A program made the position numbers and the translations under genes. From the IMG/VR virus record IMGVR_UViG_2778261353_000006: a DNA stretch of 14,509 nt. The stretch is one strand, 5' to 3'. This document shows, one piece after another, positions 3,093 through 10,122 of this stretch; position 1 is the stretch's first letter; each line of letters starts with the position of its first letter. The notes under the pieces are model-generated. The model saw only the letters and a list, made by a program, of their open reading frames with translations, was not told the DNA's origin and did not search any database. Origin of the DNA: a virus. Its lineage: Duplodnaviria > Heunggongvirae > Uroviricota > Caudoviricetes.

Positions 3093-3255
3093 AACGACCT
3101 CACGTTTCGATAATTTTCACCTCACCACCTTCAGGTTCCAATCATCGGGTGGCGAACTGTGCAGGGTTGGAACTACCGGTCGAAACATCCGGCGCACCTT
3201 TCGGTGCCCCCACACAGCCCGCCATAAATCGCGAATGTGACTGTGCTTAGCGCAT

Positions 3256-3275
3256 AAAAAAACCGCCAGCGCGGT
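3256..3275 (-). terminator. Rho-independent terminator
   Basis: Minus strand: ACCGC-GCTG-GCGGT stem-loop followed by TTTTTTT, downstream of the DUF551 and 27-aa genes. Confidence 0.55.
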
Positions 3276-3361
3276 ATGCACCGTTTCGATATCCGGGGTT
3301 CCAATCCCGACGCCAGATTTTGCTGGCGCGTCGGAAATATAGCCCCGGATTAGTAATTACG

Positions 3362-4580: not shown

Positions 4581-4835
4581 TCATTCATTTCTGTTCTCCC
4601 ACGTTTGCAGACTTTCACCACAGAACGGACAAAATGAAACCCGCACTGGTAATTTAGAAAATTCACCGGAACGCAACATCACCAAATCAGGGTCGCGAGT
4701 TAAATTCTCATTCCAGATTTTGTATATCAGCAGACCTTTTCGCGTCGTGTATTCAGCATCATGCTCAAGGGCTTTTGCCAGTACCGCACATGGTTCTATC
4801 TGATTGCTATTAACCTGACATTTTGATTCGCTCAC
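4581..4835 (-). CDS. hypothetical protein (84 aa from GTG), C-terminal CPFC motif
   Basis: The track ORF begins at GTG 4904 inside the upstream gene. GTG at 4835 has AGGAGG 7 nt upstream and overlaps the upstream stop (GTGA), so it is the more plausible start. Confidence 0.5.
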   Translation of the reverse strand: MSESKCQVNSNQIEPCAVLAKALEHDAEYTTRKGLLIYKIWNENLTRDPDLVMLRSGEFSKLPVRVSFCPFCGESLQTWENRNE

Positions 4836-8745: not shown

Positions 8746-9153
8746 ATGGAATTTAAAGATTTACCAAAAGAAATCCAGATAATTGCTGCAACGACACTCG
8801 GTGATAGTCTGGTGAAAATTGACCCGGCATACACCAAAAAAGAAACCATCGATAATATGATTCGTAATGTGCGCAATGCTTTTTCAGGGCTATATGGTTC
8901 TGATAATCAAAAACAGGAAAACGATATTGATGAACGGGTAATTTCTGTTTGCCTGAATGGTCATGTTATTTCAGCAATCAGAACAGAAACGGCAACTGTT
9001 TTTGATTATCTCTGCATGATTCAGAGTCTTGCTGATGTTCTGTTGAAATCAAAAGATTTAGAAAACGATGCAAATTTACAGGGGCGCACAATAGCACATC
9101 CATATGCACATACTTTAGGCTCTGTGGATATCAAAGATCCCACAAATCTTTAA
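8746..9153 (+). CDS. hypothetical protein (135 aa), AT-rich cargo gene
   Basis: ATG at 8746, GAGG SD, 22 nt after the ydfC stop. Visibly lower GC than its neighbours; no family recognised. Confidence 0.7.
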   Translation: MEFKDLPKEIQIIAATTLGDSLVKIDPAYTKKETIDNMIRNVRNAFSGLYGSDNQKQENDIDERVISVCLNGHVISAIRTETATVFDYLCMIQSLADVLLKSKDLENDANLQGRTIAHPYAHTLGSVDIKDPTNL

Positions 9154-9364
9154 TGAAATAGTTAACGCAAATTGTACTTGCTCTTTCAGTTGCTTTCAGA
9201 ATACGCGTTGAAACTGCTGGCGGTAATTTAGTATTCCATTTATTAAAATCATGCCCGGGAAAGTACTCTTCGAAAATACTTTTAACTGCAGACTCGCCTA
9301 TTGAAATGCTGCTTACCATGCGATTTTGATAAAGGCATTTAGCAATAAGAGTTGATTTTAACAT
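9131..9364 (-). CDS. hypothetical protein (77 aa), convergent with the 135-aa gene
   Basis: ATG at 9364 with AAGGGTGA upstream; AT-rich; 3' end overlaps the 135-aa gene by 23 nt on the opposite strand. Confidence 0.5.
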   Translation of the reverse strand: MLKSTLIAKCLYQNRMVSSISIGESAVKSIFEEYFPGHDFNKWNTKLPPAVSTRILKATERASTICVNYFIKDLWDL

Positions 9365-9687
9365 TCACCCTTCTGAGGGTTGGTAATTAAGGAGTTCTCC
9401 ACGGGTGAGGTGGAGTGCGTGCGCCGGACACGGGTGAGCATCCGGCACTGACAGTTTACTGAAAGGATATATCCCTGAAAAGTCAGGGCATAACACGAAA
9501 GCGTACGGCGAAGGCCTTCACCTATGAGGCTTGTCGTTAAATTTAATTCGACCGTACGCTTCCGGTTGTGGCAATCCGCGAAATGGAGCGGCGGTAAGTA
9601 TGGCAGGGGTACTATTCTCCCTCCCCTGTGGAGCACCGGGTTGTCAGGTTGACCATACGCTTAAGTGACAACCCCGCTGCAACAACC

Positions 9688-9750
9688 CATGTTGATTACC
9701 TTTTGGCGGGTATCCGTTTTTTGTTTTCCCTTGTGATACCCGCCCTTTTT
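9688..9750 (+). ncRNA. dicF: DicF-like sRNA (5' end approximate) ending in an intrinsic terminator
   Basis: Perfect 10-bp stem GGCGGGTATC (9705-9714) / GATACCCGCC (9735-9744) followed by TTTTT (9746-9750). The ...UUUGGCGGGUAUC... core and the location about 185 nt upstream of dicB match DicF of Qin as recalled; the 5' part differs from K-12 DicF. Confidence 0.5.
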
Positions 9751-9756
9751 AAAGTG

Positions 9757-9914
9757 AATTTTGTGATGCGGTGAATGCGGCTCAGCGCACGCGGAACAGT
9801 TAAAAAGGCCAGTTGACTTCCGTATTGGTTCTTATGGGTGGGTTCTCTGTATCCGGCGTTAATTGTTAACTGGTTAACGTCACCTGGAGGCACCAGGCAC
9901 CGCATCACAAAATT
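9757..9914. repeat. 17-bp perfect long-range inverted repeat enclosing about 124 nt between DicF and dicB
   Basis: AATTTTGTGATGCGGTG (9757-9773) and its exact reverse complement CACCGCATCACAAAATT (9898-9914); internal GTTAAC-based palindromes; the dicB SD lies just 3' of the distal arm. Confidence 0.7.
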
Positions 9915-9933
9915 CATTGTTGAGGACGCGATA

Positions 9934-10122
9934 ATGGAAACGTTATTACCAAACGTTAATACGTCTGAAGGTTGCTTTGAAATTGGTGTCAAAATCAGTA
10001 ACCCAGTATTTACTGAAGATGCCATTAATAAGAGAAAACACGAACGGGAGCTATTAAATCAAATATGCATTGTTTCAATGCTGGCCCGTTTACGTCTGAT
10101 GCAAAAAGGATGCTGGCAGTGA
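9934..10122 (+). CDS. dicB: cell-division inhibitor DicB (62 aa)
   Basis: ATG at 9934 with GAGGA SD 7 nt upstream; METLLPNVNTSEGCFEIGVKISNPVFTEDAINKRKHERELLNQICIVSMLARLRLMQKGCWQ matches DicB as recalled. The track start at 9838 is a spurious extension. Confidence 0.85.
   Translation: METLLPNVNTSEGCFEIGVKISNPVFTEDAINKRKHERELLNQICIVSMLARLRLMQKGCWQ

Follow-up and report, generated by a model that had tools for sequence, protein, structure and literature searches.

A conserved RNA domain as a candidate passenger in the DicF-precursor leader of dicBF-type prophage operons

The 14,509-nt viral stretch IMGVR_UViG_2778261353_000006 (Caudoviricetes; hereafter the window) holds at positions 9365–9690 a GC-rich interval (hereafter the block), which an earlier note on this DNA had described as rich in palindromes and repeats, free of a convincing open reading frame (ORF) and located upstream of the small RNA (sRNA) gene dicF. 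Positions 9300–9800 are 100% identical to the chromosome of Escherichia coli UTAK-3, where the gene order reads Cro-like, dicA-like repressor, ydfA, ydfB, ydfC, two hypotheticals, the block, dicB, DUF1482 and exonuclease; judged by this arrangement, the locus is the early-left operon of a Qin/dicBF-type prophage, read on the plus strand. Between ydfC and the block sits a cassette of a 135-aa gene (8746–9153, plus strand) and a 77-aa gene (9131–9364, minus strand), which is extra with respect to the Qin prophage of K-12 and to phage Tritos and belongs to phage families of unknown function (phrog_1363 and phrog_10348, respectively) without Pfam match. The two genes are convergent and overlap by 23 nt at their 3′ ends, so the 77-aa gene, presented in the note as convergent, converges only with its 135-aa neighbor and is divergent from the block. 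As different minus-strand genes start exactly at the 5′ edge of the block in many related loci, this edge resembles a hot spot for insertions.

The block is ~88% identical to the 340-nt ydfC-dicF spacer of Qin in K-12 (a "long untranslated region"), with homology starting at ~9376, and was aligned end to end with the spacers of K-12 and Tritos (three-way, 90% mean column identity), the operon order being the same. Megablast with 9300–9800 as query hit 4422 of the 5426 complete E. coli genomes searched. Transcription of the K-12 operon starts at dicBp, with no internal promoter found; RNase III generates the 5′ end of a 190-nt form of DicF, and RNase E the 53-nt form. The longer species builds up when RNase E is inactivated and is gone without RNase III (PMC10448788). 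The main ydfA-containing transcript of the wild type stops at the DicF terminator, with read-through only in the absence of RNase E (PMC10448788). Counting 190 nt back from the annotated 3′ end of DicF in K-12 leads to L003:2246, between CCGTGCG and CT, in the 3′ strand of the homolog of a 9-bp stem formed in the window by AGCGTACGG (9500–9508) and CCGTACGCT (9552–9560); the equivalent position in the window is ~9559. Because the count lands in this strand, we consider the 9-bp stem to be the RNase III hairpin: together with an outer helix it provides a double-stranded substrate for the enzyme at the point where the 190-nt RNA starts, and the cleavage known from K-12 presumably takes place here as well. 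The option that the block is the processed 5′ precursor of DicF is therefore essentially right, by homology to the K-12 spacer and by the literature. The K-12 precursor (Ragunathan et al. 2023, PMC10448788) shares with the window its homologous sequence, operon position, upstream RNase III hairpin and the order domain, linker, sRNA and terminator, and differs in lacking the two-gene cassette and in its sRNA, which has diverged in the window. As a DicF precursor the interval is thus already known.

The element that follows the block lies in the DicF position: the downstream tail, and not the block, is placed between ydfC and dicB and ends in an intrinsic terminator. However, the Rfam DicF model (RF00039, cut-off 48 bits) found no match window-wide and none at E ≤ 10 in 9000–10000 or 9480–9760, while the positive controls K-12 and Tritos scored 76.7 and 72.5 bits; "upstream of DicF" is hence correct for the position and fails for the family. 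The sRNA is a recurrent variant (TTGATTACCTTTTGGCGGGTATC...GATACCCGCC), the targets of which may differ from those of DicF.

All repeats and stems listed in the earlier note were recovered, at or within one base of the positions given there. The GC content is 0.49–0.56 inside the block and 0.35–0.39 in the flanking genes, the direct repeat CACGGGTGAG occurs at 9400–9409 and 9429–9438, the pairs CCGGA/TCCGG and CAGGGG/CCCCTG are present (Table 1), the 9-bp stem extends to 13 nt at 92% complementarity, and the palindromes GAAGGCCTTC and TTAAATTTAA lie at 9510–9519 and 9537–9546, the latter one base away from where it had been implied. Block and downstream sRNA together (9365–9760) are more stable than shuffles (z = −4.67 on the plus and −4.79 on the minus strand), and with both strands at about −4.7 the folding z-score picks neither. 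The absence of a convincing ORF needs rewording, as a 92-aa ORF does exist on the minus strand (9358–9636), albeit without conservation. Its K-12 counterpart has 111 aa, and hypothetical proteins are annotated in some phage records; such frames could be taken for minus-strand coding, and the mosaic flanks around the conserved domain described below, as at a module boundary, for a DNA-level element, e.g., a recombination linker between phage modules. Against coding, protein similarity between the two ORFs is limited to stretches of near-identical DNA, the lengths of homologous domains vary by 1, 3, 4, and 5 nt (variants of 133, 135, 136, 138, 139, and 140 nt), and no 3-base periodicity of variability was detected in them; the frame-shifting lengths and the missing periodicity exclude a conserved ORF. 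Compensatory and G.U changes in addition indicate selection on RNA pairing, and we attach a minimal probability to a coding or DNA-level explanation.

Table 1. Positions of the predicted features in and next to the block
Feature	Positions	Strand	Remark
Ribosome-binding site region and edge of the 5′ untranslated region (UTR) of the 77-aa gene	9365–9380	minus	start codon 9362–9364; small hairpin ACCCU/AGGGU
Hairpin Ha: CTCCAC 9397–9402, loop GGGTGAG, GTGGAG 9410–9415	9397–9415	plus	first repeat copy
Hairpin Hb: CCGGA 9424–9428, loop CACGGGTGAGCA, TCCGG 9441–9445	9424–9445	plus	second repeat copy
Hairpin P(-1): CCCTGA-AAAG-TCAGGG	9473–9488	plus	directly 5′ of CATAAC
Long imperfect hairpin	9489–9571	plus	predicted RNase III cut at ~9559
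Outer helix P0: CATAAC / GTTGTG	9489–9494 / 9565–9570	plus	
Conserved domain	9565–9683	plus	covariance-model match of 134 bits at 9555–9693
Closing stem P1c: GTTGTGGC / GCTGCAAC	9565–9572 / 9676–9683	plus	
P2 hairpin	9576–9580 / 9587–9591	plus	
P3: CGGT / ACCG	9592–9595 / 9635–9638	plus	encloses variable hairpin P4
P4: CAGGGG / CCCCTG	9604–9609 / 9623–9628	plus	variable
P5: GGTTGTCA / TGACAACC	9639–9646 / 9666–9673	plus	near-invariant 19-nt loop
Pseudoknot: GTATGG / CCATAC	9598–9603 / 9653–9658	plus	probable
AU-rich linker (9684–9704) and DicF-position sRNA	9684–9750	plus	follows the domain
Intrinsic terminator stem: GGCGGGTATC / GATACCCGCC	9705–9714 / 9735–9744	plus	T-run 9746–9750

Comparison with homologous loci indicates that the block is composite and modular, consisting of a 5′ part, a processing platform and a 3′ domain (Table 1). 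The 5′ part (9365–9467) is lineage-specific: 38 of 121 distinct homologous stretches had no BLAST-detectable match to the 5′ 200 nt of the block (9365–9564), others share only part of it, the 5′ 100 nt fall into several unrelated types, and other lineages carry an unrelated hairpin at the place of Ha. The stems of Ha and Hb are invariant and their loops vary (37 distinct sequences for Ha), without covariation; since the stems never vary, the two hairpins are neither backed nor refuted. By comparative evidence, the 3′ half and the 9-bp stem exceed chance, which is not shown for the 5′ repeat hairpins. A long-range pairing of the 5′ repeats with the 3′ strand of P4, suggested by a single-sequence fold, was rejected, as unrelated 5′ parts accompany the same domain elsewhere. 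The 5′ part is also the place where the 77-aa gene has to be considered, as the block could hold the promoter and 5′ UTR of this divergent gene or act on it in antisense. The gene begins at 9364, at the very edge of the block, the hairpin at 9367–9380 overlaps its Shine-Dalgarno region, and many loci have some minus-strand gene at the same edge. Nevertheless, this would explain at most 9365 to ~9400, and of the UTR or promoter envisaged in the earlier note only the first ~12–15 nt stand, for the block is conserved in K-12 and Tritos, which lack the gene. A promoter-like site was found on neither strand of the block, and the G.U pairs of the domain fit the plus strand, so the chances of this explanation are slim.

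The platform holds the small hairpin P(-1), which is kept in other lineages with changed sequence (CTCTGA/TCAGAG, CCTGG/CCAGG, GCTGG/CCAGC or GCCTG/CAGGC), and the long imperfect hairpin, of which the 9-bp stem is the inner stem. This stem shows one compensatory change from C-G to U-A in the window, with both U.G intermediates in other sequences. The apex is hypervariable and includes a GTCG-loop-CGAC hairpin; TTAAATTTAA is the loop of this conserved hairpin, while GAAGGCCTTC, found in only 1 of 28 distinct apical sequences, is not conserved. In distant lineages (L050, L152, L155, L166–L174) the middle hairpin upstream of GTTGTGG measures ~130 nt and contains two T-arm-like hairpins (CTGGTTCGATTCCAG and GTCCGTTCAATTCGGAC) closed by GAGAGCAYT/AGTGCTCTC; neither Rfam nor ARAGORN gave a match to it, and the GTCG-TTAAATTTAATT-CGAC of E. 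coli looks like a remnant of it. Three deletion variants (L013, L058, and L140) have CATAAC/CACAAC joined straight to GCGAAATGG, with loss of the RNase III hairpin and of the 5′ strand of the closing stem, apparently through recombination between two CGAAA repeats.

The 3′ domain (~120–135 nt) is modeled as a closing stem (P1c) with three arms and a probable loop-to-junction pseudoknot. Among 42 distinct sequences aligned with MAFFT, 95.1% of the cells were paired (29–58% with partners slid) and 14 pairs had changed on both sides, compared with 4.9 ± 1.5 after shuffling (0 of 500 shuffles reached 14) and 1–5 after sliding. A model-fitted alignment of 74 distinct sequences gave 95.8% paired cells (29–58% slid) and likewise 14 pairs changed on both sides (5.2 ± 1.5 shuffled, 0 of 500 reaching 14; 0–5 slid). 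Six of the eight pairs of P5 covary (e.g., GGGUAACCA/UGGUUACCC in Izhakiella), P3 has a change from U-A to C-G, and the pseudoknot changes from U-A to C-G in the P1 lineage only, with U.G intermediates. The tandem U.G/G.U pairs of P1c (UG:41, GU:47) fit the plus strand only. The domain matched no Rfam family, and the Rfam scan proposed by the note found nothing in the block or its distant homologs, either at the gathering threshold or at E ≤ 10. A tRNA/tmRNA search found nothing in the window, with neither ARAGORN nor the Rfam tRNA model matching the domain, and a full-text literature search for the loop and junction sequences returned no paper. Covariation over homologs, also proposed earlier, thus speaks for the domain and the 9-bp stem and not for the 5′ repeat hairpins; an independent structured RNA, as one option had it, is supported for 9565–9683, where covariation is accompanied by occurrence of the domain without the rest of the block, and not for the remainder.

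The domain was found in 4045 of 5426 complete E. coli genomes (7797 places, up to 7 per genome), never annotated, as well as in the P1 and P7 phage-plasmids (the P1 annotation at the site is "dicF-like region"), in phages cdtI and lambda_2H10, in a Salmonella phage, and in Citrobacter, Trabulsiella, Erwinia, Izhakiella, and Serratia. Wherever the flanks were readable, it comes after the immunity repressor and ahead of the recombination genes, and P1, lambda_2H10, and cdtI have it without the remainder of the block. In P1 the domain begins ~15–25 nt past the point where the C1-controlled Pban transcript is predicted to start, with a terminator and then tRNA genes behind it, and in lambda_2H10 a near-consensus PL (2183–2210) precedes the domain (2491–2625) by ~275 nt, a strong terminator (2628–2675) and then all early-left genes coming after it. 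Generally, a terminator is present within 36–129 nt of the domain (74 of 78 distinct tails scored, the remaining 4 by eye). No second copy of the domain was found in the right operon or elsewhere in the elements searched.

Such positions in an early-operon leader ahead of terminators, as in P1 Pban and lambda_2H10, recall putL and putR of HK022, which act without protein factors downstream of PL and PR (PMC9378689). Both put and the domain are structured RNAs in repressor-controlled early leaders, phages of this kind can lack N, and no N-like protein was recognized beside the domain in 2H10. A nascent domain acting as a processive antiterminator would bind RNA polymerase and cause read-through of the following and later terminators, in the case of put through the zinc-binding domain of the β′ subunit. 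However, the domain shows no sequence or structure homology to put and has another, larger fold (five helices and a pseudoknot in 135 nt versus two stem-loops in ~70 nt), it occurs as a single copy per element, the domain model found nothing in the 24.0–33.6 kb of HK022 taken as early genes (best 8.5 bits, E 0.35), and the mostly terminated K-12 transcripts, with read-through seen only without RNase E, speak against strong activity. As the domain is also naturally dispensable, with the terminator retained in variants that lack it (see below), we consider antitermination improbable.

The place of the domain between GTTGTGG and CCACAAC, here called the slot, turned out to be variable. Metagenomes were scanned with the upstream hairpin motif of the distant lineage as query, and the loci retrieved keep this upstream unit with different sequences between the two motifs: the domain (L166, L167), unrelated inserts (L168, L171, L172) or a tRNA-like piece (L170). 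In L169 the slot is empty and the hairpin GTTGTGAC-AT-GTCACAAC is left, and in L174 it is taken by a complete tRNA-Arg(TCT), with the acceptor strand overlapping GTTGTGG (ARAGORN; Rfam tRNA 72 bits). An empty slot also occurs in the E. coli-type arrangement, as in phage phiSTEC1589-Stx1c, where the 5′ part and the RNase III hairpin are followed by the empty slot GTTGTGAATAACAAC and an sRNA-like tail with terminator, in an operon with an N antiterminator encoded upstream. This empty-slot junction is present in at least 80 E. coli genomes, with tail and terminator retained.

These alleles bear on the idea that the domain is a cis-acting processing or stability scaffold that presents the linker to RNase E, sets the 5′ end of the sRNA and protects the 190-nt precursor, having no activity of its own. 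In its favor, the 53-nt RNA arises by RNase E cleavage immediately 3′ of the domain, with accumulation of the 190-nt form upon RNase E inactivation (PMC10448788), an sRNA-like tail and terminator follow every domain, and stem-loops direct RNase E processing of 3′UTR-derived sRNAs such as MicL, according to a passage in PMC9438474 that cites this. On the other hand, one tail type (ATTGCTGTGTGTAGT...GGCGG...) accompanies the domain in L155, L166, and L167 and is present without it in L175, where the slot is empty, so the domain is dispensable for the tail; moreover, a 19-nt loop that is near-invariant over six genera implies more constraint than a spacer needs, and the P1 tail is little beyond a terminator. 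We regard the scaffold as a rather unlikely reading, albeit one with better prospects than antitermination.

The constant company of a terminator, within ~130 nt in 78 of 78 distinct cases, could also point to a riboswitch-like attenuator that senses a ligand, protein, tRNA or temperature and decides between termination, with the sRNA being made, and read-through into dicB and the recombination genes. The domain has the size of an aptamer, a pseudoknot and a near-invariant junction, GUUGUGG has the alternative partners CAUAAC and CCACAAC, and DicF accumulates in stationary phase (PMC10448788). Nevertheless, no conserved, mutually exclusive pairing between domain and terminator was found: the candidate GGCGGUA/UACCGCC, which involves the 3′ arm of the terminator, was rejected, being confined to DicF- and 2H10-type tails, absent in P1 and altered in the window. 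The spacer between domain and terminator varies from ~10 to ~70 nt and holds sRNA sequence, there was no Rfam riboswitch match at E ≤ 10, and the slot may be empty or filled by a tRNA while the terminator stays. Empty-slot alleles and the mostly terminated K-12 transcripts weaken attenuator and antiterminator alike, and the attenuator seems to us just as improbable.

The account that we prefer, with about an even chance of being correct, is that the interval constitutes the non-coding leader of a dicBF-type early-left operon and carries in its slot a passenger RNA domain that is excised from the leader. Transcription would start on the plus strand at a DicA-repressed promoter upstream of ydfA and pass through the processing platform (9473–9571), with its small hairpin followed by the long hairpin cut by RNase III. 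The cut at ~9559, shown in K-12 and presumed here, would yield the ~190-nt RNA made up of domain and sRNA. GUUGUGG can pair either with the upstream CAUAAC, which extends the RNase III hairpin, or with the downstream CCACAAC, which closes the domain; the cut would free it from the outer helix and thereby allow the domain to close. A second cut in the linker, by RNase E as shown for K-12, would then release the short sRNA and a predicted domain RNA of ~125–137 nt. In our reading the domain is a passenger RNA that has its own role, and not a sensor or antiterminator for the following terminator. This is ranked first because the domain stands alone at the start of the P1 transcript, because tail and terminator persist where it is missing or a tRNA stands in its place, and because RNase III and RNase E sites bound it in K-12. 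The near-invariant loop and junction bases suggest that a conserved host factor is bound. More tentatively, and with a clearly lower likelihood, the domain may represent a new class of phage-borne, trans-acting structured RNA directed at such a factor, for example as decoy or inhibitor of a nuclease or defense system or as tRNA mimic.

Several points count against this interpretation. A stable domain RNA of ~130 nt has no report in the literature, in which the published probes were aimed at DicF, and the universal coupling to a terminator would fit a cis-regulatory role as well. The transcript species are known from K-12, and the RNase III site was set by length arithmetic and homology and not read off a K-12 figure. 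The empty and tRNA-filled slots come partly from the distant lineage, in which the middle hairpin differs. As for the fold, the larger alignment (74 sequences) was fitted to the model, and the shuffle counts overstate significance because many sequences are closely related. Support for the pseudoknot comes from one lineage (3 C-G and 3 U-G of 74), and pattern scans of viral contigs and metagenomes for pseudoknot variants gave rare uncompensated singletons or nothing, for which reasons the pseudoknot is called probable and not proven.

Further RNA features were seen in the tail region and elsewhere in the window. A sub-threshold match to STnc100 (RF02076) at 9743–9966 on the plus strand (34 bits, gathering threshold 47) spans the untranslated region from the terminator to dicB, without overlap with the block, and a related GGTGAATGCGGCT..GCGCACGCGG motif recurs in P1. 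The region includes a long-range stem of TGTGATGCGGTG with CACCGCATCACA, and a comparable 14-bp stem follows the terminator of Lambda_2H10. A weak match of the domain model in P1 (14 bits; L004:3830–3973, between upl and tciA) was rejected as a second domain copy, since the sequence there is STnc100-like (GGTGAATGCGGCTAAGCGCACGCGG), with TGCTCTTTCCGTTGCGG in front of it, which hints at leader elements built from repeated units. In the distant homologs L152 (~4745–4790), L155 (~2590–2640), and L150, the loop of the terminator hairpin is ~50 nt long and holds a Shine-Dalgarno sequence and ATG; the short ORF crosses the 3′ arm, and its frame is not conserved past the T-run. At 2301–2471, 3145–3229, and 3256–3342, all on the minus strand, Rfam matches were obtained to sok antitoxin RNA (101 bits), C4 antisense RNA (75 bits), isrK (72 bits) and the c4 a1/b1 target (47 bits), which by these matches represent a hok/sok-type module and a P1/P7-like immI antirepressor control of the same prophage; C4 and isrK are present in Lambda_2H10 as well.

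Known systems offer partial parallels to a passenger RNA. sRNAs are said, in work by Lalaouna from 2015, to be cut from tRNA trailers and spacers (e.g., 3′ETS-leuZ), the tRNAs being excised from polycistronic transcripts. The domain likewise has a closing stem of 7–8 bp and an sRNA as the 3′ trailer released by RNase E, a tRNA-Arg occupies the slot in L174 ahead of a similar tail, and tRNA genes follow in P1. Unlike a tRNA, however, it is not recognized as such by ARAGORN or Rfam, its arms and loops are far larger, and the 5′ end would be made by RNase III instead of RNase P. With regard to a tRNA-type four-way junction the picture is mixed: the order of closing stem, P2, P3/P4, and P5 is that of a cloverleaf, the arm sizes differ, and the tertiary pairing joins the junction to the P5 loop. 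In phage T4, the stable RNA species 1 and 2 are structured non-tRNA RNAs inside a tRNA cluster and are co-transcribed and co-processed with the tRNAs; the likeness to the domain is one of description, and phage type and processing enzymes differ. In phage lambda, an RNase III-cleaved hairpin in the untranslated early-left leader tunes the translation of N. The block too has an RNase III hairpin in an early-left leader, but here the cut would liberate a structured RNA and an sRNA.

Few bacterial sRNAs have been known for as long as DicF, and the 190-nt form, reportedly on gels since 1990 in work by Faubladier, consists mostly of 137 nt that have so far been treated as a spacer. As far as searchable papers show, the fold, conservation and spread of this 137-nt 5′ body had not been described; by the searchable literature and Rfam, what is new is the covariation-supported fold, its conservation beyond DicF and Escherichia, and the interchangeability of the slot content with a tRNA. 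An origin of DicF-type sRNAs as 3′ trailers of tRNA-like genes within early operons of phages is also suggested. Conservation of the domain exceeds that of DicF itself, and the domain is common to P1-type phage-plasmids, lambdoid phages and several enterobacterial genera, whereby the "precursor" becomes a candidate functional RNA in the best-studied bacterium. If it is indeed a trans-acting RNA, an undescribed functional RNA would be present in K-12 itself and in ~75% of E. coli genomes.

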